Source: Candidatus Nanoarchaeia archaeon
Lineage (GTDB): Archaea; Nanobdellota; Nanobdellia; SCGC-AAA011-G17; JACPNG01
Length of the DNA: 64,000 bases
Assembly: GCA_028714095.1 (NCBI GenBank)
Contig: JAQTMY010000001.1
Location: forward strand, 185,787-249,786
Reading direction: 5' to 3'
The notes beneath the pieces are model-generated. The model did no database searches. It was not told the origin of the DNA and was given only the letters and a program-made list of their open reading frames with translations. This document shows, one piece after another, positions 41,119 to 62,707 of this stretch (its first letter is position 1; each line of letters starts with the position of its first letter). The position numbers and the translations under genes are program-made.

Positions 41119-44100
41119 TTAACTAAACCACCTGTTTAATCCTTCTTGCTTTTCAGACTCTTTTCCAAAAACACTTTCTATTCTTTTCTGTAATAATTCT
41201 AAAGTTTGTTGTAAATAAGGAGGCAAATCATATTTCTTGGCTAAATCCAGACTTGGTTCAAGATATTTAATAATAGAACCTTCAGCAATTGTAAATATAA
41301 TTCTTCCCCCACAGCTTAAACACTTCCCCATCAATGGAGGTCTTCTGTATTTTTCATTGCAGTCAACGCATCTGAATTGCTGCATTGAAAATTTTCTTAG
41401 GTTACCTTTAATATCTCTTAGAAAATGCCTTTCAATTATTAATCTTGCAACATCCCCCTCATCCACAGCTCTTATTTTTTCAGCCAAATCCATTTGTCCC
41501 TTTACCTTATCTTGCATGGAAGGAATTGTTTTGTATGCACTGCATAAAGTCCCTTGGTTTATGTCAAAAGGATCATGGGTAAATCCCATCCCCTCATACT
41601 GTTTCTCAGTTCCTAATCTTCCTCTATAAGTCTCAATCATTATCTCCCATGGGAACTTAAACTGCTCTGCAGATTCATAAAATTCTAAAGGATATTTCCA
41701 TGCAGTATCCATGTTGAATACCATATCATCAACTTCTGCAGGGATTAATTTAAAGTTTAAAACTAAAGGAGCATCCTGCCTTGCCCCTCTATGCCCGGGT
41801 AAATATAATTTTGAAAAATTAAGCAGAGCATCAAGGAGTAATACAACACAGGCTTCATCTCCATCCGCATCCCTCCTCATCATACAATGCAATAATGGAT
41901 GTGCATAAAATCCCTGGGTTTTTGAAAAGCCTATTACTCTGCATAAGTTTCCTGCAGAGGTGTGTGGACTTAAAGCAACCAACAAACTTCCTGTAACATC
42001 TTCTTCGCTTTTAAAATTATAATACCTTGATAATCCATATAAATTTTCTAATAGATCATCAACAAATCTTCCAACCCTGAATAAGATTTTATCAGCCCCT
42101 TCTTCTAAAGATCCCTCGCATGAAGGCAGGATAATATCTTGACACTTTAGTTCTATAACCTGATTTTCATCTACAATATCCCTTCCATAAATATCTTTAT
42201 CATACCCCAACTGTTTTATTTTTTTAATATTAGTTCCTATCTCCTTAAGCTTAAAATGAGTTAAAGCAGTCTCAGTCATATCATATCTTACAGTTCCATC
42301 CTTATTTACATGAATATTATATATGCTTCTCAGAATCCCCTTAACTAAATTCTCAGGGATTTTATCCTCACTCCAGACCCCCTTAACCCCTTTGATTAAA
42401 TCCTTATATTCTGTAATGTTCAGCTTTGCTAAGGCATTCCTGAAATAATGATTAACATCAACTCCGCGGCTTGTATAAGTTCTGCTTAGATGAGTCACTT
42501 CTTGTTCCTTCCCCTCCTTATCCTTTACCTTCTTGGTTTTTTCACATTTGGTTTCAAGAATTTTATCATCATCATAACAATAATATCTCTTTTGTGTTCT
42601 TATCCCACAAACTTCGCAGGTAGGATAAATTGTTTCCTTGTTGCATTTTATACAGTAAAAGTAAGGCCATTCAGCATTAACCTTTCCTTTTTCTAATGCA
42701 CTTTGCAGATTTCTCATTTTTCCGCCTTCCTCTCCTACTGGAAATAAGACATGGGGGTTTCCTGTTAATTTCCTTATCTTTGCTTTTTCAGGTCTTCCCA
42801 TCCTTGCACCGATGAAATGACCGTTCTTATCCTTAATATCAAAATTAAACATATTAAGAATCTTCAAACAATCTTCTTTGTTAAAATCCAGTTTTGAAAG
42901 GTCTTTAAAAATATAATTTAATACAAAACAATCCCCTCCGGAAATATAAACTTGATTCTCTATTACCCTATGCGGTACCCCTAATAATTCTAATGTCCTT
43001 TTAGGATCTTCTCCCTCAATAACTTCTTTGATGTCATATTCTAAAGGGAGAATAATCTCATTCTCTGTCTTAGTTGCATGCTTAATCCATTCAACAAAAT
43101 TTTCCAGTTGTTTTTTGGAAATATTTTTCCAATGGTATGTATATCTTGGATGCAGTGGAATTTTATATAAGGTGCTCATTTTTATTGCATCTTCTCCAGA
43201 AATTTGTTTGTACGGATTTTTTATTAGTTCATTAACAGCTTCATTTTTATTTTCTAATTTTTCAAGAATTGCCCTGTGCCATTCCTCATTATACCCGCAT
43301 GGAATTAATCTGTGCCCCCTGTCAAGAAAGTCTCCATAATTAATTAAAATATCTCCTAAAAATAAAATTTCTTCTATCTTATTTTTAAATAATAATGCTT
43401 TTTCCTCTGTGTCAACTAAAACAACATCCCCATTCTTTAATTTTACAATTGGCCCTTCAAGAGTATCACATACAGCCAAGACTGTAGACTTCCCAGGTCT
43501 CTCCGTTCTTAGCTGTGTTCCAACAGCTAAATAGTCATTTAATATTCTCATAGTTGCAGGATGTACCGCATCAGAACTGAATCCTGAATTTCTCGCTCTT
43601 CCATATCTTAATCTGAATCCTCCATTCCTTAATGGATAAGTTAGTATTGGCCTACCAGCAACTAAATCTTTTATAAAAGTATAATCTGGTTTAACTAACT
43701 GGTCAGAAGCAGTTTTTCCTTTTGATTTTGCTTTTATTTTTTTCTGTAATTCAACAAACTCCTCAAGGAAATCCATGCTGGTTATTCCAAAATCCTGTTT
43801 CCATTTTGAAAATTTGGAAAAGAACTTGGCAGCTTTTTGTGTTAAGCCCTCACCTATAACTAAAGCTATCCCATTCCTTAATCTGTTTGTTTCAATTCTT
43901 TCAAGGTTTTTATAATTGGAAACCTCAATTTTTTCAGAGGGTTCTCCATCAATCTGCACAGGTAAATGTTTTATCATAAACTCTATTTCAGGTTCTGAGG
44001 GAAAATACTGTAGATTAGTTATTCTCTCATGGAAATCTATCACTTCTGTAATCATTCTCTTGACTTCTTCTTCAGTGGGATCATAAACCTCATAACCCAT

Positions 44101-44628
44101 CTTTTGTCTTACATAATCTGCCAAAGCAACAAAAACACATGTAGCAGTTGTTCCAGCACTTCTTATTGGTCCTGAAAAAAATAGGGAAAAATAAGGCTTG
44201 CCATCTTTTCTTTTTTTCAAGGCTAGTTTAGTAAATCCCTCTAAGGGACTAGCTACAACCCCATTAGTAATATAAGCCAATCCAACTCTTAACCCTACTT
44301 CCATGGCCAACCTCTCGTCGCTAAACTTACAGAATTTTTGTTGTGCAACTTCCAATGCGACGGTAAATGCAATTCTCCAGTCCTGGCTTCCATATTGTTT
44401 TTCTAATTCCTCTATTCTTTGCAGAATTCCTGAACCTTTAACCTGGGGGGCAACAGTTCCAATTAACCCTTCTACCCTTGCAGCCATGTTTTTAGCTAGG
44501 TTTATTTCAACTTCATCAGCAGGATCATATCCTTTTTTTCTTGCCTTAGTTGCTAAATCATATAATATATCTAATTCATTCTTTAATTTATCAAAATACA
44601 TTTCCATATTTTCACTTGCCTGATTCAT
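41119..44628 (-). CDS. polD2: DNA polymerase II (PolD) large subunit DP2
   Basis: Length about 1170 aa with conserved DP2 blocks and C-terminal Cys clusters (CVDCNEKY...CLSCGG). It is immediately downstream of DP1 and cdc6. Confidence 0.9.
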   Translation of the reverse strand: MNQASENMEMYFDKLKNELDILYDLATKARKKGYDPADEVEINLAKNMAARVEGLIGTVAPQVKGSGILQRIEELEKQYGSQDWRIAFTVALEVAQQKFCKFSDERLAMEVGLRVGLAYITNGVVASPLEGFTKLALKKRKDGKPYFSLFFSGPIRSAGTTATCVFVALADYVRQKMGYEVYDPTEEEVKRMITEVIDFHERITNLQYFPSEPEIEFMIKHLPVQIDGEPSEKIEVSNYKNLERIETNRLRNGIALVIGEGLTQKAAKFFSKFSKWKQDFGITSMDFLEEFVELQKKIKAKSKGKTASDQLVKPDYTFIKDLVAGRPILTYPLRNGGFRLRYGRARNSGFSSDAVHPATMRILNDYLAVGTQLRTERPGKSTVLAVCDTLEGPIVKLKNGDVVLVDTEEKALLFKNKIEEILFLGDILINYGDFLDRGHRLIPCGYNEEWHRAILEKLENKNEAVNELIKNPYKQISGEDAIKMSTLYKIPLHPRYTYHWKNISKKQLENFVEWIKHATKTENEIILPLEYDIKEVIEGEDPKRTLELLGVPHRVIENQVYISGGDCFVLNYIFKDLSKLDFNKEDCLKILNMFNFDIKDKNGHFIGARMGRPEKAKIRKLTGNPHVLFPVGEEGGKMRNLQSALEKGKVNAEWPYFYCIKCNKETIYPTCEVCGIRTQKRYYCYDDDKILETKCEKTKKVKDKEGKEQEVTHLSRTYTSRGVDVNHYFRNALAKLNITEYKDLIKGVKGVWSEDKIPENLVKGILRSIYNIHVNKDGTVRYDMTETALTHFKLKEIGTNIKKIKQLGYDKDIYGRDIVDENQVIELKCQDIILPSCEGSLEEGADKILFRVGRFVDDLLENLYGLSRYYNFKSEEDVTGSLLVALSPHTSAGNLCRVIGFSKTQGFYAHPLLHCMMRRDADGDEACVVLLLDALLNFSKLYLPGHRGARQDAPLVLNFKLIPAEVDDMVFNMDTAWKYPLEFYESAEQFKFPWEIMIETYRGRLGTEKQYEGMGFTHDPFDINQGTLCSAYKTIPSMQDKVKGQMDLAEKIRAVDEGDVARLIIERHFLRDIKGNLRKFSMQQFRCVDCNEKYRRPPLMGKCLSCGGRIIFTIAEGSIIKYLEPSLDLAKKYDLPPYLQQTLELLQKRIESVFGKESEKQEGLNRWFS

Positions 44629-46255
44629 CTTCCCAAAAATTAATTATGCTTACCTCCCTTGTTTTAAGATTAATAACAGGAACTCTTCCAGGTTCTGCAA
44701 TATGTCCTACCTTGTCCTGGAAGGGGGTCTGTTTCTGCCATGCAGATGAAGCAATCATCGTGACATTATTATAATTTAAAACCGCCGCCCTATGGATATG
44801 CCCCGAAATAAAAAAATCAGGAACCTTCTCAATGACTAATGGATCTAAATCTTTGTATGGAACATACAATGTAGAGGTATGGCTTGGAGCCAAATGTCTT
44901 TTTTGGAGTAATAATTTCATAACTAAGTCTGTTCTTTCAGATATATTTGGTTTCATCAACCTTATTCTCTCAACCTTGTCAGCATAATAATCATAACTAT
45001 ATCCATGATATAATAAAAAATCAAATCCCATGAAGTGTTCAGAAGAATGTATATTAACAACAGAAGGGTTGCTTACAATAAAAACATTTTCCATGTTGTA
45101 GAGATCTTCAGCATAATGTCTTGGTTGTGGAGGTTGTGGCTCCCCAATCCTTAAAGCATCGTGATTCCCAGAAGTAATTATTATCTTGATATCCTTCCTT
45201 ATCTTGTTTAATAATTCCGCAACCCTTTTGTACTGTTCCCTTATATCCCTTAACGTTAATTCCTCTTCCTGGCCTGGATAAATTCCAAGTCCGTCAACAA
45301 TATCCCCCATAACAAAAAGATATTTTATCTTGCTTGCAATCCTCTTTTGTTTTATATTTCCATACTCCCCATTGAGCCATGAAACAAAATTAAGAAATTC
45401 TTTTTCCATAAATAAATTGCTTCCCACATGCATATCTCCAGTTATAACTGCATAAACCTCATCTTCAGATTTCTTAAATTCCATTGTGTGAGGCACATCA
45501 GGAAAAAATATATCAGAAACAAAAACAACCTTATCCCCCATTGTTCCATTAATTCCAATGACCTCATCCAGGACAATATCCTGTGCTTTGATGAAGGATT
45601 CGTTTGTTTTTGTGATAAGTATATTTATATTACCTGTATTGTCCTCCATTGCAATCTTAAGATGCCCCGCCTTGGTTGTTTGTATATCATTGACTAATCC
45701 AATTAAAGCAACAGGTTCTCTTAATGATTTATTCAAGGTCCTGTTAATTGAGATAACATTCTGTAGTTCATTTCTTGACTGCAACATCTCTTTTATTTTA
45801 TTATACCTTGCTCTAAAATACAAAACAAAATCCTGAACCTCTCTTTTACTTGCTTCTTCCATATAGGATTTCAGGACAACAACACTGCTCCCAATTTTTT
45901 CTTTCTCAATCTCATCCTTTTCAGGTTCCTTGATTTCTTCTAGAACCTTATCCATTACCTTCTTGGTTTTTTCAGATAGATTATAATTAAAAATATCCAT
46001 AAATAATTTGTAATCTTCTTCACTCCTTCCTTTTTCATGCATTGTTTTTGCTCTTTCAAACTCCTTCCAGCTCACATCCATTAAAACCCCTTTTTGGATT
46101 AGAGGTAGAATCTCCTTATTCAGAACCAGAACTCCCTTATCAGAATAAATATTGATTATCTCAGTTAAATTTTCATTTAATCCCTCAAGGACATCTTTGA
46201 GTTCTGGGCTGACTAATATTCCTTTTTCTAAAAAATAATTAATTGTATTTTTCAT
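44612..46255 (-). CDS. polD1: DNA polymerase II (PolD) small subunit DP1 (calcineurin-like phosphoesterase)
   Basis: GDMHVGS and GNHD phosphoesterase motifs; an OB-domain region lies upstream. Confidence 0.85.
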   Translation of the reverse strand: MKNTINYFLEKGILVSPELKDVLEGLNENLTEIINIYSDKGVLVLNKEILPLIQKGVLMDVSWKEFERAKTMHEKGRSEEDYKLFMDIFNYNLSEKTKKVMDKVLEEIKEPEKDEIEKEKIGSSVVVLKSYMEEASKREVQDFVLYFRARYNKIKEMLQSRNELQNVISINRTLNKSLREPVALIGLVNDIQTTKAGHLKIAMEDNTGNINILITKTNESFIKAQDIVLDEVIGINGTMGDKVVFVSDIFFPDVPHTMEFKKSEDEVYAVITGDMHVGSNLFMEKEFLNFVSWLNGEYGNIKQKRIASKIKYLFVMGDIVDGLGIYPGQEEELTLRDIREQYKRVAELLNKIRKDIKIIITSGNHDALRIGEPQPPQPRHYAEDLYNMENVFIVSNPSVVNIHSSEHFMGFDFLLYHGYSYDYYADKVERIRLMKPNISERTDLVMKLLLQKRHLAPSHTSTLYVPYKDLDPLVIEKVPDFFISGHIHRAAVLNYNNVTMIASSAWQKQTPFQDKVGHIAEPGRVPVINLKTREVSIINFWEDESGK

Positions 46256-47460
46256 AAACCCAATCCGGTTTTCAATAAATCCTTTACCTTAGGTACTGTT
46301 GAACTGGGAATTGCTAACCTTATTTCCCTTGTACGTCCATACCTCCCCTTGCTAATTACTTTAGCATTAATAATACCTAACATATCCAATTCCGCAATAA
46401 TGTCGGATACTCTTCTTTGTGTTAATGGTTTAAGCCCAACCTTGATGCATGCATCCTTGTAGAGTTCATAGATATCCCCTGTGAAGATTGGTTTGTCATC
46501 GCTGAAAGTCATACTAAAAATTGAATATAATGCCAATTTGAATTGTTTTGGTTGTGTACTTATTGTATCTAATACTCTATCCCTCTCTATTTTTTCCTGG
46601 GCATCATCAATGTGCTTCATTAAAATATGAATCTCATTACCTCTCTCTGCAATTTCTCCCGCAACTCTCAATAACTCTAATGCCCTTCTTGCATCTCCGT
46701 GTTCTCTTGCAGCATAAGCCGCACATTTTTCTATTACCCCTTCTTCCATTGCTTTCGGCCTAAACGCAATATTTACCCTTTCCCTCAAGATGCTTTGTAG
46801 CTGAACAGCATTATATGGAGGAAATACTAATTCTTCCTCCCCCAAACTGCTTTTTACTCTTGGATCCAATTCAGACGTAAAAGTTAAATCATTGGAAATC
46901 CCTATCAGAGAGATTTCTGTATTTTTTAATTCATGATTTAATCTTGTTAAATTGTACAAGATTCCATCATCAATCTTTTTTACTAGCTGATCAATTTCAT
47001 CTAAGATTAAGATAAGTAATATTTTTTCTTTGTCAATCTCTTTGATAAAAATTTTATAAACCTCATCTGTTGGCAATCCCGTTGCCGGAACTTCTACTCC
47101 TAACTCCCTTGTGATCTGGGCAATTAATCTATATTCTGTATCAGCAACTCTTTTTAATTTACAGTTAAGGTAAACAATTTTAAGGGGTAAATTATTTTTC
47201 TTGGCAATTTTAATTAGATCATCGCTAACTTTAGTAATAGAAACCGTTTTCCCTGTTCCGGTTTTTCCATAAATAAAAAGATTGCTTGGTTTTTCCATCC
47301 TTAAGGAAGGAGCCAATATTCCCGCAATATTTTTGATTTGATCATCCCTATGCGGAATGTTTTCCGGGGTGTAATTCATCTGCATTGCTTTCTTGTTAAT
47401 AAACAAGGGTTCTTTTTTTAAGAAATTCTCAAAGTAATTTATCAACTCTTTTTCAGCCAT
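46252..47460 (-). CDS. cdc6: Orc1/Cdc6 replication initiator
   Basis: AAA+ Walker A IYGKTGTGKTVS; Walker B ILILDEID; C-terminal winged helix. Confidence 0.9.
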   Translation of the reverse strand: MAEKELINYFENFLKKEPLFINKKAMQMNYTPENIPHRDDQIKNIAGILAPSLRMEKPSNLFIYGKTGTGKTVSITKVSDDLIKIAKKNNLPLKIVYLNCKLKRVADTEYRLIAQITRELGVEVPATGLPTDEVYKIFIKEIDKEKILLILILDEIDQLVKKIDDGILYNLTRLNHELKNTEISLIGISNDLTFTSELDPRVKSSLGEEELVFPPYNAVQLQSILRERVNIAFRPKAMEEGVIEKCAAYAAREHGDARRALELLRVAGEIAERGNEIHILMKHIDDAQEKIERDRVLDTISTQPKQFKLALYSIFSMTFSDDKPIFTGDIYELYKDACIKVGLKPLTQRRVSDIIAELDMLGIINAKVISKGRYGRTREIRLAIPSSTVPKVKDLLKTGLGL

Positions 47461-47958
47461 TTTAATTCTTCCCTCTTAGTTTTTATTTAAAGATTGTTGG
47501 TCTATAAAATTAATAGTTAAAATATAAACACCAACACCCCTATTTCATATAGAACAAATACATGAAAGATTTAATATAAAAAACTTCATTACCACTCTAA
47601 CTAAACACCAACCCTTCTTATGGAAAAATATTCAAACAAATAAATAATAAAATATATATGATAGAATATAGAAAATCTTTTAAATTAAATATATAAATTA
47701 TAAATCTAAATTCTTTAATATTTTAATACTACAACCCCTAGGAGTCTATTTTAGCCAATTAAAGTTCCATACCCCCACTTTATTAAAAAAGCTAAATCCA
47801 GGTTTCCATAGGTAATAGAGGTTACATTTGCTTCCAAATGAAAAAAAACCCAAAAACAAAATATTTAGAGGTTCCATATGAATTCAAGGTGTGAGGGTCC
47901 CAAAAATAATCCCCCTCCCTCCAAAAACCTTTAAATATTAAAAAACCTAACCAATAAC
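47461..47958. promoter_or_regulatory. Putative replication origin (oriC): an AT-rich unwinding element flanked by repeated TTCCA-N-A-TG (mini-ORB-like) motifs and C/G strings. The cdc6 promoter lies in this region as well.
   Basis: Mini-ORB-like repeats at about 47764, 47803, 47832 and 47871 (gttccatac, gtttccatagg, cttccaaatg, ggttccatatg). Paired acaccaacaccc / acaccaaccc elements at about 47528 and 47605. A nearly pure A/T stretch at about 47640..47720. The region is directly upstream of cdc6-polD. Confidence 0.5.
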
Positions 47959-48315: not shown

Positions 48316-48579
48316 ATGGCAGAAGAAGATAAAAGATATTCTAAACAACTTTTAGGCAAAACCATAGTTACAAAATCAGGAAAAAGATTTGGAGAAGTTG
48401 GTGCAATAACTTTTGAGACAAGAACCGGAGAGTTAATGCAGATAGTTATTAGAAATCCAACAAGTTTTGCTGACAGTCTTGAATTGGAAGAAGATGAAAA
48501 AGGTAATTTGTTGATACCTTACTCGGCTGTAATTGCCATCGGAGATTTTATAGTAGTTTCTGAAGAAGATATTATTTAA
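48316..48579 (+). CDS. PRC-barrel domain protein
   Basis: 87 aa; LLGKTIVTKSGKRFGEVGAITFE...IPYSAV is a PRC-barrel-like pattern. This is the second PRC-barrel gene in the window. Confidence 0.5.
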   Translation: MAEEDKRYSKQLLGKTIVTKSGKRFGEVGAITFETRTGELMQIVIRNPTSFADSLELEEDEKGNLLIPYSAVIAIGDFIVVSEEDII

Positions 48580-51667: not shown

Positions 51668-51922
51668 TTAGATCATCTTCCTGAATTGATCATAAGCTTC
51701 ATTAGTCATAATCCATTGTTTTCTTCTTATATGATTTTTATTAACCTGCCTGACTAATCCTCTCTTCTCCATGTCTAAAAGTAATCTTAATACAAACTCA
51801 TCATCCCTTATGATCTCATTGGCAAGGTCTTTGGTATACATTGGCTTTAAGTTTAAATCATACAATAAATACAGAATGTCCTGTTTAATCCTTTCAATCT
51901 TTTCCTTAGAAATCTGAGACAT
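51668..51922 (-). CDS. Small winged-helix DNA-binding protein
   Basis: 84 aa with an HTH core YTKDLANEI...LLLDMEKRGLV. Confidence 0.45.
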   Translation of the reverse strand: MSQISKEKIERIKQDILYLLYDLNLKPMYTKDLANEIIRDDEFVLRLLLDMEKRGLVRQVNKNHIRRKQWIMTNEAYDQFRKMI

Positions 51923-53756: not shown

Positions 53757-54185
53757 ATGGCTATAGTTGGTTTTAATTTTGATAAGATCCTTGTAGAGAG
53801 GAAAAAACCTCTGAAAGGAGAACTTAAGGTTAAGAATAACCTGGACATAAAATCCATAAAAGAAGAAGAAATGGATTTAGGGCTTAAACAAAAAATAATT
53901 AGATTTGAATTTGAATTTAATTCTAAATACGAACCCGGCATAGCCGACATTGAAATTCTAGGACATATCCTTTATGCAGATTCAGAGGATAAAGTAAAGA
54001 AAATCCTCGACGATTGGAAGAAGAAAAAAGATATTGAGATACAGCTTAAGACAAGGCTCATAAATATTGCTTTAGCTAAAAGTAATATTAAAGCTTTAAC
54101 ACTTACTCAGGATGTAAACCTCCCCCCCCACATTAAATTGCCCGTAGTTGCACCAAAGATGGATAAATCCAACTACATAGGCTGA
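53757..54185 (+). CDS. Hypothetical protein
   Basis: ORF only. Confidence 0.35.
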   Translation: MAIVGFNFDKILVERKKPLKGELKVKNNLDIKSIKEEEMDLGLKQKIIRFEFEFNSKYEPGIADIEILGHILYADSEDKVKKILDDWKKKKDIEIQLKTRLINIALAKSNIKALTLTQDVNLPPHIKLPVVAPKMDKSNYIG

Positions 54186-54186
54186 A

Positions 54187-54230
54187 ACACGCACGCACTC
54201 ACATAAGAATCACATTTGAAGCACATAAAA
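54187..54230. repeat. GC-rich CA/CG simple-sequence tract (acacgcacgcactcaca...), copy 1, intergenic
   Basis: Seen directly. A second, longer copy lies at 54506..54546. Confidence 0.7.
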
Positions 54231-54271
54231 TTATTTAAATTTCTAAAACATCCCTATCTATAGAGGGGAAA

Positions 54272-54892
54272 ATGGCTGAAAATGGGCTTAATTTTATAGA
54301 AAACGTTAAATTATCCTTTAGTAAGGCTAAAGATGATATAACTTCCTTAGAATTAGAAATAAATAAATTAAAACAAATAATTTCTGAACAAAATAAGAAA
54401 ATAACCAAATTAATTGAAAAAATTGATATTTTAACCATTAAAGAGAAACTTGAGGTTTTTCCAGGGTCTTCCGAAAATAGTTCCATAGGAACTCAAGGGG
54501 TAGAAGCACGCACGCACGCACGCACTCACATCACACTCACACCCCCTAAAAACACCTTTTCAGCCTTTAATATTGAAATAGACCAGCTTTTCGCCAAATT
54601 TACACAAAAGGATTTTCAGGTCTTTCTTACCATATATCAGCTTGAAGAAGAGAAAGGAAAGGTCACCTATACCGACGTGGCCACTCATCTTAATATGTCT
54701 GAATCCGGCATCAGATCATATATCTCCAGATTGATTGCTAAAAATGCTCCCCTCTCAAAAGAGAAAATCAATAACAAACTCTCACTTTTGCATATTTTGC
54801 CAGATTTTAGGAGCCTAAACCTCAAAAGCAAACTTTTGGATATGTACTATCACCAGGACTCACTCCAGAAAAAGCTTTCAGATCAGTTCTGA
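54272..54892 (+). CDS. Coiled-coil plus C-terminal winged-helix protein, carrying an internal simple-sequence repeat in the linker
   Basis: N-terminal heptads. The linker ARTHARTHITLT is encoded by (GCAC/GCACG)n. The C-terminal HTH is KVTYTDVATHLNMSESGIRSYISRL. Confidence 0.45.
   Translation: MAENGLNFIENVKLSFSKAKDDITSLELEINKLKQIISEQNKKITKLIEKIDILTIKEKLEVFPGSSENSSIGTQGVEARTHARTHITLTPPKNTFSAFNIEIDQLFAKFTQKDFQVFLTIYQLEEEKGKVTYTDVATHLNMSESGIRSYISRLIAKNAPLSKEKINNKLSLLHILPDFRSLNLKSKLLDMYYHQDSLQKKLSDQF
54506..54546. repeat. GC-rich (CACG)n/(CA)n simple-sequence tract inside the CDS 54272..54892, copy 2
   Basis: The tract is gcacgcacgcacgcacgcactcacatcacactcacaccccc. Confidence 0.75.
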
Positions 54893-55515
54893 ACTCTCAC
54901 TTTTTGTTTTTTAGCCTGTTTTTTCTGTATATTTAGACCCTTTAATACCTCATTCTTGTATTTTTCGTTGATATAAAACCTCTTTGTACCGTCTGATTCA
55001 GCCCTCTCCTCTATTAAACCCTCACTTTTATGCTTTATATTGTTAATCTGGCCTCTTATGGTAGATTTATCCTTGCCTAGTAAGGACTCCAAGTCTTCAT
55101 AGCTAAGTTTTATCTCAGTATTTAGTAAGGTCCATACCACTAGTCTCTCCATCATAGTCAAATTTTTCAGTTGGATGGCTGTTTGGACAGCTGTTTGGAC
55201 ACCCTCAAACGCCTGTTTGGACACATGTTTGTTTGTGCCTGTTTGTTTTTGGGGGGTTGTTTGGACAGCTGTTTGTTTTTCAAACAGGGAGGCAAGCTTC
55301 TTTTCAATCTCGTCCAATCTTGCATGGATATTTAAGAACTCTTTTTCATGTTTATGATTCTTCTCTTTGAAATGATTTATCCAATCAGAAATCTTACTCA
55401 TATCCTCCCTTACTTTTGCAAAGGATTGTTTGCTATTAGAATGAACATTATCAATTCTTTTGTGAATGTGTTCCTCTTTTTTTCTGGTAAAAAAACCAAA
55501 CAGCATAATAATCAA
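54883..55515 (-). CDS. Coiled-coil plus C-terminal winged-helix protein (paralogous architecture to 54272..54892), carrying an internal tandem repeat
   Basis: HTH core KLSYEDLESLLGKDKSTIRGQINNI. The linker GVQTAVQTA is encoded by tandem CTGTTTGGACA units. Confidence 0.45.
   Translation of the reverse strand: MIIMLFGFFTRKKEEHIHKRIDNVHSNSKQSFAKVREDMSKISDWINHFKEKNHKHEKEFLNIHARLDEIEKKLASLFEKQTAVQTTPQKQTGTNKHVSKQAFEGVQTAVQTAIQLKNLTMMERLVVWTLLNTEIKLSYEDLESLLGKDKSTIRGQINNIKHKSEGLIEERAESDGTKRFYINEKYKNEVLKGLNIQKKQAKKQKVRVQN
55173..55282. repeat. Imperfect tandem repeats of about 11 bp (CTGTTTGGACA / TGTTTGTTT) inside the CDS 54883..55515
   Basis: The sequence is ggctgtttggacagctgtttggacaccctcaaacgcctgtttggacacatgtttgtttgtgcctgtttgtttttggggggttgtttggacagctgtttgttttt. 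Confidence 0.7.
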
Positions 55516-55547
55516 ATATCCTCCTTATTTAATAACTTTTCTCTCTT

Positions 55548-56357
55548 CTAATCAAGAGGACTCTTGATTTTTTTGATTTGTTCCTGTGAAACATGTGTAT
55601 AAATCTGCGTTGTACTGAGTTGTGAATGCCCAAGTAACTCCTGTATCAGCCTTATGTCCGTCCCATTCTCGAGCAAATGAGTGGCAAAACTATGCCTTAG
55701 GGTATGTGGTGTAACCCTCTTCTTAATCCCTGCCTTAAATGCGACATTCTGTATGATTTTCTGTATATTTCTCGTCGTCAAACCCCTCTTTTCTTTTCCA
55801 GGGAATAGGTAAGGAGAGGCTTCAGGAAGTGTTTGAATATACTTTTCAAGGTCCTTTAATATCTTTCCAGCAACAATAGTTATTCTGTCTTTGTTCCCTT
55901 TTCCAGACTTAACCCTTATTGTTTTTTCCTTGAAATCAATTTGTTCTGTCTTTAGGTTTACAAGTTCAGAAACCCGGAGTCCAGTACTATATAACAATTC
56001 AATTATTAGCCTAGTTTTATTGTTCTTGGCATTTTTTATAAGCAAAAAAATTTCATCTCTGCTTAAAACTTCCGGGTTTGACTTGGGAATCTTGGGAGTT
56101 TTTAAATTAACTATATTTTTTCCCAAAATTTCATCATAAAAAAACTTCAATGCGCTCTTCTTCAAGGAAACACTTCTTGGCTTCAAGCTTAAATCAGAGA
56201 CTAAATAACTCATATACTTCTTGATATCCTCTTCTTCTACCTCTTTTGGTTCTTTTTTGATATAATCAAGAAATAATTTGTTATGCCTTATGTAAGAGCT
56301 GAGAGTTTCCTTGGAAAAACCCCTCAATTTTAATTCCATCTCAAGTTTATCTAACAA
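55548..56357 (-). CDS. Tyrosine recombinase, XerC/XerD (archaeal XerA)-like. The ORF as listed starts at a TTG codon.
   Basis: C-terminal catalytic region HTLRHSFATHLLENGTDIRLIQELLGHSQLSTTQIYTHV (R...HxxR...Y). Confidence 0.85.
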   Translation of the reverse strand: MLDKLEMELKLRGFSKETLSSYIRHNKLFLDYIKKEPKEVEEEDIKKYMSYLVSDLSLKPRSVSLKKSALKFFYDEILGKNIVNLKTPKIPKSNPEVLSRDEIFLLIKNAKNNKTRLIIELLYSTGLRVSELVNLKTEQIDFKEKTIRVKSGKGNKDRITIVAGKILKDLEKYIQTLPEASPYLFPGKEKRGLTTRNIQKIIQNVAFKAGIKKRVTPHTLRHSFATHLLENGTDIRLIQELLGHSQLSTTQIYTHVSQEQIKKIKSPLD

Positions 56358-61863: not shown

Positions 61864-62169
61864 TTATTTTATCTTTGTTTTTAGGTCTTTAAAGATTTTA
61901 CTGAAGAGTTTATAGCTTAAATCAAGCTCTTTTTGACCTTTTTTTGTTAAGGAATATATTTTTTTCCTTCCTTTTTGTTTTAATTTTATTAAATTATTTT
62001 CTCTTAAAGATTTAAGCGCCGGATAGATAGTACCCGGCGTTAATTTATCACCCCTCTTGGTTCCGATTATTTCGGCCAAATCGTCCCCGCAGAGCTTATT
62101 CTTATTGATTTCGTGGAGTATCCTAAAACTAAGTAGCCCACTCATATCAATAAATTTTGGTTCTTTCAT
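61864..62169 (-). CDS. PadR-family transcriptional regulator
   Basis: GTIYPALKSLRENNLI recognition-helix/wing signature. Confidence 0.7.
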   Translation of the reverse strand: MKEPKFIDMSGLLSFRILHEINKNKLCGDDLAEIIGTKRGDKLTPGTIYPALKSLRENNLIKLKQKGRKKIYSLTKKGQKELDLSYKLFSKIFKDLKTKIK

Positions 62170-62380
62170 AATAATTCAAAATTAGTTTTAGTATATAAAC
62201 TTATCGGTTACACAATATATTGGATAAACAATTATAGGTTATCAAATAGATAGGTTAACCTATATATAGGACAAACAATATATAAAAATTTAATAATAAA
62301 AATTTCAATCAAAGCTTAAAACTTTTAGGCGTAAAAATTAGCCCAAAAACTACTTAAATGACTAAAAATTAATCTAAAAA

Positions 62381-62707
62381 ATGCAAATTAAAAATAAGAG
62401 AATAGATGCAAACGGAATAAAGTTCTTTATAGAAAAAGATGGAAGAGAAATAGCTAGGGCTTATTTATATTTGATGTATAATGATATGCATGAAAAACCC
62501 TTTGGTTTGTTAGAAGATGTTTTTGTTGAAGAATCTTTAAGAGGCCAAGGCATAGGAACTAAACTAACTCAGGAAATAATAAAAGAAGCAGGTAAAGTAT
62601 GTTATAAATTAATCTGCACAAGCAGATACTCCAGAGAAAAAGTTCATTCTTTGTATCAAAAACTTGGGTTTAAGGATCACGGAAAGGAATTTAGGATTGA
62701 TTTTTAA
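62381..62707 (+). CDS. GNAT-family N-acetyltransferase
   Basis: Motif A region VFVEESLRGQGIGTKL. Confidence 0.7.
   Translation: MQIKNKRIDANGIKFFIEKDGREIARAYLYLMYNDMHEKPFGLLEDVFVEESLRGQGIGTKLTQEIIKEAGKVCYKLICTSRYSREKVHSLYQKLGFKDHGKEFRIDF

Follow-up and report, generated by a model that had tools for sequence, protein, structure and literature searches.

The DNA analysed here is a 64-kb window (64,000 nucleotides) from a Candidatus Nanoarchaeia (DPANN) metagenome-assembled genome (MAG). At a chromosomal locus it contains two convergent genes, A and B, each of which carries a short repeat tract within its own coding sequence. The encoded proteins are 100% identical to the hypothetical proteins PHG05_01290 and PHG05_01295, encoded on a 509-kb contig. 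Across related loci, the motifs of these tracts are conserved at the DNA level, are read in two frames in gene B, recur in promoters, co-vary with their promoter copies in gene A, remain stable in length and lie in conserved synteny. The genes and elements concerned are listed below.

54272..54892, plus strand: gene A, an open reading frame (ORF) of 206 aa, predicted to encode a helix, a disordered linker, a winged helix and C-terminal helices.
54883..55506, minus strand: gene B as publicly annotated with an ATG start, 207 aa, predicted to encode an N-terminal peptide, a helix, a disordered linker, a winged helix and a C-terminal helix.
55173..55282, minus strand: array inside gene B, four TGTCCAAACAG copies and CAAACA fragments, translated as ..TAVQT..VSKQ..GVQTAVQT..
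54506..54546, plus strand: tract inside gene A, (GCAC)5 TCAC ATCACACTCACAC, translated as ARTHARTHITLT in the disordered linker.
54188..54205, plus strand: upstream copy of the A tract, CACGCACGCACTCACAT, about 25 nt 5' of a TATA-like box; a proposed operator.
54230..54240, plus strand: TATA-like box ATTATTTAAAT of the putative A promoter, recognized by its sequence, about 32 nt before the ATG.

The 3' ends of A and B overlap by 10 nt, and a longer ORF for gene B (54883..55515, minus strand, 210 aa) begins with TTG. The AlphaFold model of A, based on 10 aligned sequences, consisted of an N-terminal helix (residues 3-61), a linker (62-95), a winged helix-turn-helix (wHTH; 96-175) and C-terminal helices (177-205). 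The model of B, based on 105 aligned sequences, showed the same order of elements (N-terminal helix 5-82, linker 84-105, wHTH 106-178 and C-terminal helices 181-206). The predicted local distance difference test score (pLDDT) was 84-96 in the wHTH block of B and 81-94 in that of A, and it was below 50 in both linkers, where the repeat-encoded residues fall. The best Foldseek matches to the C-terminal half of B in PDB were the Lrs14-type AbfR2 (6cmv, E=1.7e-4) and the MarR-type MepR (3eco), with a template-modelling score of ~0.5 on the target; the matched MarR- and Lrs14-type winged helices include DNA-bound structures. On the basis of these models, both A and B are predicted to carry the wHTH fold. 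No Pfam or NCBIfam model scored above its cut-off for A or B. The sub-threshold Pfam scores of A were 21.7 for HTH_11 (cut-off 25) and 19.6 for HTH_24 (cut-off 21.9), no Pfam E-value for B was better than 0.016, and a search of PDB sequences with the B profile returned coiled-coil noise only.

A and B share 22% identity (BLASTP E=0.008), and their family profiles were aligned by hhalign with a probability of 96.3% and E=1.9e-9 over 163 columns, from the N-terminal SF..K.D motif via the 'GV' repeat start into the winged helix. As judged from these alignments, A and B are distant paralogs that are homologous over their whole length. Family B comprises at least 1761 proteins and family A at least 1380, the query being a typical member; in DPANN archaea, the annotation of either family is mostly 'hypothetical'. 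Family B has, in addition, a conserved hydrophobic-basic N-terminal peptide (window 55470..55506; MLFGFF..KK, MFGFFKKKK, MFGLFGHKKR and MVWWLFRKKR in L001-L080), which resembles an amphipathic membrane-targeting helix in its sequence. An earlier note on the window, made from its letters alone, had described the two genes as paralogs composed of a coiled coil, a linker and a wHTH, with the linkers encoded by the repeats; the AlphaFold models and the hhalign comparison bear this out, as does the position of the encoded residues in the segments of low pLDDT. The (GCAC)n tract that the note had placed at 54506..54546 was recovered by Tandem Repeats Finder (TRF) with a period of 4 and 6 copies ((GCAC)x6 at 54506..54529), and the second CACG-type copy reported in the 5' intergenic region is likewise present, with 17 identical nt at 54188. 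The figure of about ten units in B was an overcount of the four TGTCCAAACAG copies and CAAACA-type fragments.

To place the pair in context, 81 loci were compared, i.e., the window and 80 B-homolog loci from a one-genome-per-species scan, the latter from Woesearchaeota, Pacearchaeota and Nanoarchaeota MAGs. Restriction of the motifs to the locus was assessed over +/-10 kb around the loci (1.3 Mb in total) and over the 64-kb window. Runs of N interrupt L007 (8408..8641) and the A-type gene of L051, and the artefact ORFs there were left out of the counts.

In the window, copies of TGTCCAAACAG with no more than one mismatch begin at 55179, 55191, 55213 and 55257 in gene B, all on the minus strand, and TRF identified a perfect 12-mer duplication at 55178..55201. 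The remaining 64 kb contained one further match at 1 mismatch, compared with 1.2 expected. The linkers of family B read ..VQTAVQT.., ..LSKQ.. and, in some members, ..CPNS.., which correspond to the three frames of TGTCCAAACAG. Among the in-gene copies with at most one mismatch in the 81 loci, 185 were read as xVQT, 66 as xSKQ and 1 in the third frame. The codons within the motif differed sharply from the background. In the VQT frame, Val was encoded by GTC in 59% of cases (GT[CT] in 95%) vs 9% for GTC in the background, Gln by CAA in 99.6% vs 70% and Thr by ACA in 87% vs 46%; in the SKQ frame, Ser was encoded by TCC in 86% vs 8% and Lys by AAA in 97% vs 74%. The use of one motif in two frames, together with the constrained synonymous codons, indicates selection at the DNA level rather than at the peptide level.

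For the comparison of B promoters, the loci were aligned on a conserved B codon and the core T[CT]CAAAC[AG] was plotted. The core formed a sense-strand peak within the gene, a second cluster, mostly inverted, over the 300 nt 5' of the start and a further peak ~50 nt before the B start codon. Among the 56 loci with a well-defined start, the upstream 300 nt contained a mean of 2.1 sites compared with 0.009 in 540 control pieces, i.e., the motif was enriched more than 200-fold in B promoters. At least three upstream sites were found in 18/56 of these loci, and in 22/56 a site lay within 30 nt 5' of a TATA-like box (..TGTCCAAACAGCGCGAAACATTTATAAAG..), 12 in direct and 10 in inverted orientation. 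That non-coding DNA holds the site in either orientation is an argument for its recognition as duplex DNA. Beyond gene B and its promoter the motif was rare, with 29 matches of a four-fold degenerate 10-mer on both strands of the 1.3 Mb. The proposal that TGTCCAAA/TTTGGACA might be a binding site recurring genome-wide fits the data as regards binding, but the motif is a local one, of gene B and its promoter. The longest common substring of the B linker with its own upstream region was 11.4, with the upstream regions of other loci 10.8 and with random DNA 8.7; the B motif is therefore family-wide, without lineage-specific co-variation. The arrays are opposed in orientation, both B upstream relative to B in-gene and B relative to A. 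Perfect isolated 22-bp palindromes TGTCCAAACAG/CTGTTTGGACA, in which two B motifs stand back to back, were also observed 0.9-4 kb upstream of gene B in L028 (5854..5875) and L033 (194..215), and from their sequence they could be additional targets of the B protein.

In gene A, the tract and its upstream copy have the exact 17-mer CACGCACGCACTCACAT in common, at 54188 upstream and at 54515..54531 in the gene. As a control, the upstream intergenic region of A was compared with 194 other 621-nt pieces of the window, and the match did not exceed 11 nt. The only places in the 64 kb with CACGCACGCAC are gene A and the DNA upstream of it, with 0 occurrences expected. A Shine-Dalgarno-like element, GAGGGG, sits between ATTATTTAAAT and the A start codon, and ATTATTTAAAT is kept in the orthologous loci L001 and L002. 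Across family A, the linker starts with a conserved GGGGTTCCAACAGACAGACAGACAAACCAACAGACA, in which ACA recurs at a 4-nt period and which is translated as GVPTDRQTNQQT. Codon choice in the tract again departed from that in the rest of the genes: Asp was GAC in 99% vs 33%, Asn was AAC in 89% vs 31%, His was CAC in 77% vs 30%, Thr was ACA in 88% vs 54% and Pro was CCA in 84% vs 45%. Of the (NACA)x4 tracts in the 1.3 Mb of loci, 86/88 were sense-strand tracts of A genes.

The promoter and in-gene copies of gene A change together in at least six lineages. Both are (CACG)n in the window, where the upstream copy reads GAAACACGCACGCACTCACAT, and both are (CACT)n in L001 and L002, whose A orthologs have 74% and 63% protein identity; the number of units there is the same as in the window, and the in-gene tract, (TCAC)6, has the same position and length. 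Both copies are CAAACA/CATCCCAAACA in L003, L005 and L016, (TTCA)n in L004, CTTCGACA.../CGACAGACAGAC in L020, L032, L042 and L046, and of the ATGCACA type in L072 and L079. The putative recognition helix of A also differs with the tract: SESSIRDY is paired with (NACA)n, SESGxRHY with (CAAA)n, SESGxRSY with (NCAC)n, TEGCxRTY with (TTCA)n and SQSSxRDYVSD with CTTCGACA.

The strong strand asymmetry of the tracts, with a C/A-rich sense strand and an invariable sense orientation in A genes, would also be expected if they acted in RNA, as an unstructured translation enhancer, a protein or small-RNA site, or a pairing partner of an upstream transcript. The upstream copy of A abuts the stop codon of the preceding 142-aa gene and could thus be transcribed. 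However, a single-stranded RNA signal does not fit the promoter copies of B, which are found in either orientation and 5' of the TATA box, and the copies of A are direct repeats, not complementary ones. In addition, the tracts had no Rfam match, and their folding z-scores (-0.16, -1.61 and +0.46) revealed no unusual structure. We consider an RNA-level element very unlikely.

In-frame tetranucleotide repeats are the classic architecture of contingency loci, and the earlier note had suggested phase variation, in which slipped-strand mispairing would shift the wHTH frame or alter the linker length of the regulators. The stability of the tracts was evaluated at the level of assemblies rather than reads. 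In 10 clusters of proteins with at least 90% identity (35 sequences; nine clusters of B and one of A), no difference in repeat number was detected, and the sequences differed only by point substitutions, in their C-terminal tails and in where the start had been called. In 15 A-type relatives with 74-88% identity, the tract contained no indel, while the linker just after it took insertions of 7-22 residues. The A tract had an equal length of 6 units in each of the three closest species, and their B arrays differed by substitutions and one 12-nt insertion only. The invariant lengths among relatives indicate that the tracts are stable and not hypermutable at the available resolution. An A gene was out of frame in 1/81 loci, L040 (Woesearchaeota MAG CAZSWH010000003.1), where it is split downstream of 10612 by a frameshift just 3' of (NACA)n; a pseudogene, a misassembly or a rare OFF allele could each explain the split. 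This frameshift, and the 8-10 pure (GACA) units of L021, L027, L065 and L069, are what phase variation would lead one to expect. Against this, L040 is the only one of the 81 loci with a frameshifted copy, the tracts of the window are short and impure (5+1 units in A; two perfect 12-mers and two separated copies in B), and the locus is a conserved core chromosomal block, not a surface or restriction gene. Contingency is thus largely refuted at the assembly level, and we give it scarcely any weight. The note had named two observations that would count against it, and these had different outcomes: the tracts are invariant across strains, but homologs do have a repeat-encoded linker.

The same data bear on a simpler account, in which the tracts are microsatellite-like expansions left by slippage, encode nothing more than a flexible linker and owe their uniform codons to recent duplication of units. 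Their short periods (4 in A and 12 in B), the pLDDT below 50 of the segments they encode and the differing unit sequences of A lineages in which the periodicity is kept are all in line with such an origin. However, the codons are kept across ~80 species at 40-50% protein identity, which implies long-term constraint and not recent expansion, and tract length is fixed while the flanking linker takes indels. Nor would slippage lead us to expect the B motif in non-coding promoter DNA, in both orientations and at its level of enrichment, or the co-variation of promoter and in-gene copies in A. We regard this account as improbable, although less so than phase variation.

The reading that we favour, at somewhat better than even chances, is that the A and B proteins bind the tracts as arrays of cis-acting sites, located inside the DNA that encodes the linkers of these same proteins. 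The sites would lie there because the protein sequence is least constrained in the linker. B would oligomerise via its long N-terminal helix and bind the head-to-tail 12-bp TGTCCAAACAG units within its own gene; the tandem 12-bp spacing suits head-to-tail binding of an oligomer held by this helix. In most relatives, B would also bind the second array over ~300 bp upstream, including one site near the TATA box. A would likewise bind its own 4-nt-periodic tract and, in the subgroup of the window, the copy just 5' of the TATA box. From the sites beside the TATA box, the immediate effect is predicted to be autoregulation, whether by promoter occlusion, by looping that joins the promoter sites to those in the gene or by a roadblock that hinders elongation. 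Binding in cis would be favoured by the coupling of transcription to translation.

Several points weigh against this reading. We infer both the identity of the binder and the effect of binding. In B, the VQT frame is used without exception by the best-conserved copies, and Gln104 does not vary, so that a constraint on the peptide may coexist with that on the DNA. The window, L001 and L002 have kept the in-gene array without an upstream B array, because the recombinase gene xerA abuts B in these loci; promoter occlusion therefore cannot be the mechanism of B there. In gene A, gene conversion between direct repeats 320 bp apart could have produced the co-variation. The commonest A subgroup, with the N-terminus MDPIKEAF and a (NACA)n tract, has no promoter copy and no second copy elsewhere, and the longest common substring of its A linker with upstream DNA was 9.0 for its own and 8.9 for that of others. 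Finally, the classes of helix and tract follow clades, so that their correlation is suggestive and not phylogenetically independent.

The surroundings of the pair were assessed by clustering all ORFs of the 81 loci, and the following features of the window are relevant.

55548..56357, minus strand: XerA-type tyrosine recombinase gene, 269 aa, Pfam Phage_integrase 1e-46.
53757..54185, plus strand: conserved 142-aa gene, co-directional with and upstream of A, with a homolog in 67/81 loci.
46252..47460, minus strand: orc1/cdc6 (NF001625, 510 bits).
44612..46255, minus strand: PolD small subunit DP1, which follows orc1.
41119..44628: PolD large subunit DP2, which follows DP1.
47461..47958: AT-rich intergenic region 5' of orc1/cdc6, GC content 0.28-0.29, the most AT-rich part of the area.

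The A-type gene is convergent to B in 81/81 loci, two copies lying outside the main BLAST cluster. The recombinase, which had been described as XerC/D-like and directly downstream, is indeed present, but its position is upstream of B, in the same orientation and with a 32-nt gap in the window lineage, and is an archaeal XerA equivalog (NF040815 recomb_XerA_Arch, 282 bits vs a cut-off of 220). A Xer gene was found within 10 kb in 52/81 loci, usually ~2.7 kb upstream of B on the opposite strand. The gene is a housekeeping xerA that neighbours B, and a functional link is not implied. Inversion or excision of the repeats by XerA was ruled out, as the adjacency is not fixed (52/81) and the elements are multi-copy arrays, not two core sites. 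The 142-aa gene had no Pfam or NCBIfam match. Two small genes of the window block, an 84-aa PRC-barrel gene (48316..48579, plus strand) and an 84-aa winged-helix gene (51668..51922, minus strand), are conserved near the pair in 61/81 and 64/81 loci, respectively; PRC-barrel proteins have been linked to archaeal cell division. A ~16-bp imperfect tandem repeat was also observed at 62202..62284, with the consensus TATAGGTTAACCAATA, ~5 copies and a GGTTAACC palindrome, between the divergent ORFs 61864..62169 (minus strand) and 62381..62707 (plus strand); from its sequence it may be a regulator binding array.

In the 81 loci, orc1/cdc6 was present in 50, at a median distance of 3.3 kb from the end of B, and the small and large subunits of PolD in 45 and 40, respectively. 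In other archaea, oriC abuts orc1/cdc6. The AT-rich region 47461..47958 contains three GGTTCCATA-like elements (~47765, 47803 and 47868) and, by analogy, probably represents the chromosomal origin of replication; in the window it lies 6-7 kb from the A/B pair. The possibility that the upstream array of B is oriC itself was ruled out, as the array is absent in the window lineage and the AT-rich region upstream of orc1 has different repeats. No tRNA or tmRNA gene was found in the window, no Rfam model matched it at gathering thresholds over its whole length, and no relative of B was found in 2.9 million viral contigs. The conserved synteny of the 81 loci, together with the lack of a tRNA gene and of a viral B relative, indicates an origin-proximal core block. 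The integrated element considered possible in the earlier note is thus not supported: its recombinase is the XerA equivalog, and its surroundings are orc1/cdc6-polD synteny.

This setting gives weight to a different purpose for the same sites and binders. Near the origin, the arrays and the A and B proteins could assemble into a nucleoprotein complex that serves mainly some end other than gene regulation, autoregulation being a by-product; candidates at the chromosome level are a centromere-like tether, an SMC-loading or organising site and a polar fork barrier of the RTP/Ter type. In 40-50 of the 81 loci, the pair has orc1/cdc6 close by, and polD DP1 and DP2 come after that gene. The sites occur at one locus in the sampled DNA, and a regulator that targets only itself makes little sense. 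The opposed orientations of the arrays and the N-terminal peptide of B (MFGFFKKK), which is similar to membrane-targeting peptides, point in the same direction. However, no ParA-, SegA- or SMC-type partner was found among the conserved neighbours and no ParB or RTP sequence match was obtained; cumulative GC skew has no turning point at 54-55 kb, and the upstream arrays have been lost in the window lineage. Furthermore, the restriction to a single locus applies to the +/-10 kb and the 64-kb window rather than to whole genomes. We consider this alternative unlikely on balance, but since the sites are confined to one origin-proximal locus and the N-terminus of B is hydrophobic-basic, a chromosome-level role is a serious possibility, and it is compatible with autoregulation. 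That is, there is a small but real chance that the chromosomes of Woesearchaeota, Pacearchaeota and related Nanoarchaeia carry a dedicated nucleoprotein element beside oriC, acting as a centromere-like tether or as a complex for replication control or fork arrest. If so, the sites would lie within the linker-coding DNA of two binding paralogs, and genes and cis sites would be passed on together as a single self-specifying module that cannot be separated.

Self-embedded motif arrays in a conserved DPANN gene pair of putative regulators have, to our knowledge and in the literature searched, not been described before. Searches on the DPANN origin, winged helices and repeats returned nothing about families A and B, and searches for the motif strings matched only unrelated primer sequences. 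The closest likeness to self-embedded binding sites is found in phage lambda. In the lambda O protein, the iteron-coded region joins two domains. The iterons of ori-lambda lie in the middle of gene O and are translated, and extra iterons lengthen the O protein (PMC7466680). As in lambda O, a motif array is situated inside the gene of a DNA-binding protein, between domains, although for A and B the DNA binding is our inference. No sequence or fold relation was found between A or B and the lambda O protein, and neither A nor B was seen to contain a distinct AT-rich block; the AT-rich region is that upstream of orc1, 6-7 kb away. The A/B locus, unlike lambda O, belongs to an archaeal chromosome and has Orc1/Cdc6 and a distinct AT-rich region in its vicinity, and a role in replication is only a candidate.

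Operators within genes, such as lac O2 in lacZ and gal OI in galE, and the MarR and Lrs14 autoregulators share with the pair a wHTH and candidate sites at the promoter and in transcribed DNA. Sites at the TATA box and within transcribed DNA are compatible with looping or a roadblock. In contrast to lac O2 and gal OI, the in-gene sites of A and B are multi-copy arrays in the linker-coding DNA of the regulator itself; they are conserved across more than 1000 homologs and are kept where promoter sites have been lost. Compared with MarR and Lrs14 proteins, A and B have a different layout, with a long N-terminal helix and a disordered linker, and do not reach the Pfam cut-offs.

In B. subtilis, spo0J contains a parS site, and the rtp gene is a neighbour of Ter sites bound by RTP, a winged helix with a coiled-coil dimerisation helix that acts at the terminus. 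The candidate sites of A and B are similarly clustered near an origin, in or beside the gene of the presumed binder. However, A and B have no ParB fold or CTPase domain, no partner partition ATPase is present among the conserved neighbours, the locus adjoins the origin and not the terminus, and no homology to RTP was detected. The Haemophilus contingency loci lgtC and mod also have tetranucleotide repeats inside a reading frame, whereas the A/B tracts are short, impure, conserved in length and in frame in the copies examined except that of L040. In archaeal Borg elements, tandem nucleotide repeats in ORFs create disordered regions, and the A/B repeats are likewise translated into low-complexity, disordered peptide; unlike those of Borgs, they are conserved and not fast-evolving, are copied in promoters and are restricted to one gene pair, and the B motif is used in two frames.

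In DPANN archaea, gene regulation, the organisation of origins and chromosome segregation have hardly been characterised. For annotation, the locus shows that in-frame tetranucleotide repeats are not necessarily contingency loci. If the tracts bind their own proteins, a disordered linker would serve as free space for the cis-regulatory DNA of the protein that contains it, a case of overlapping codes and an arrangement that persists across more than a thousand genomes. The paired tract changes of the A lineages represent a natural series for the co-evolution of protein and site specificity. The motif, a testable binder and the origin-proximal context provide first handles on two large DPANN protein families.

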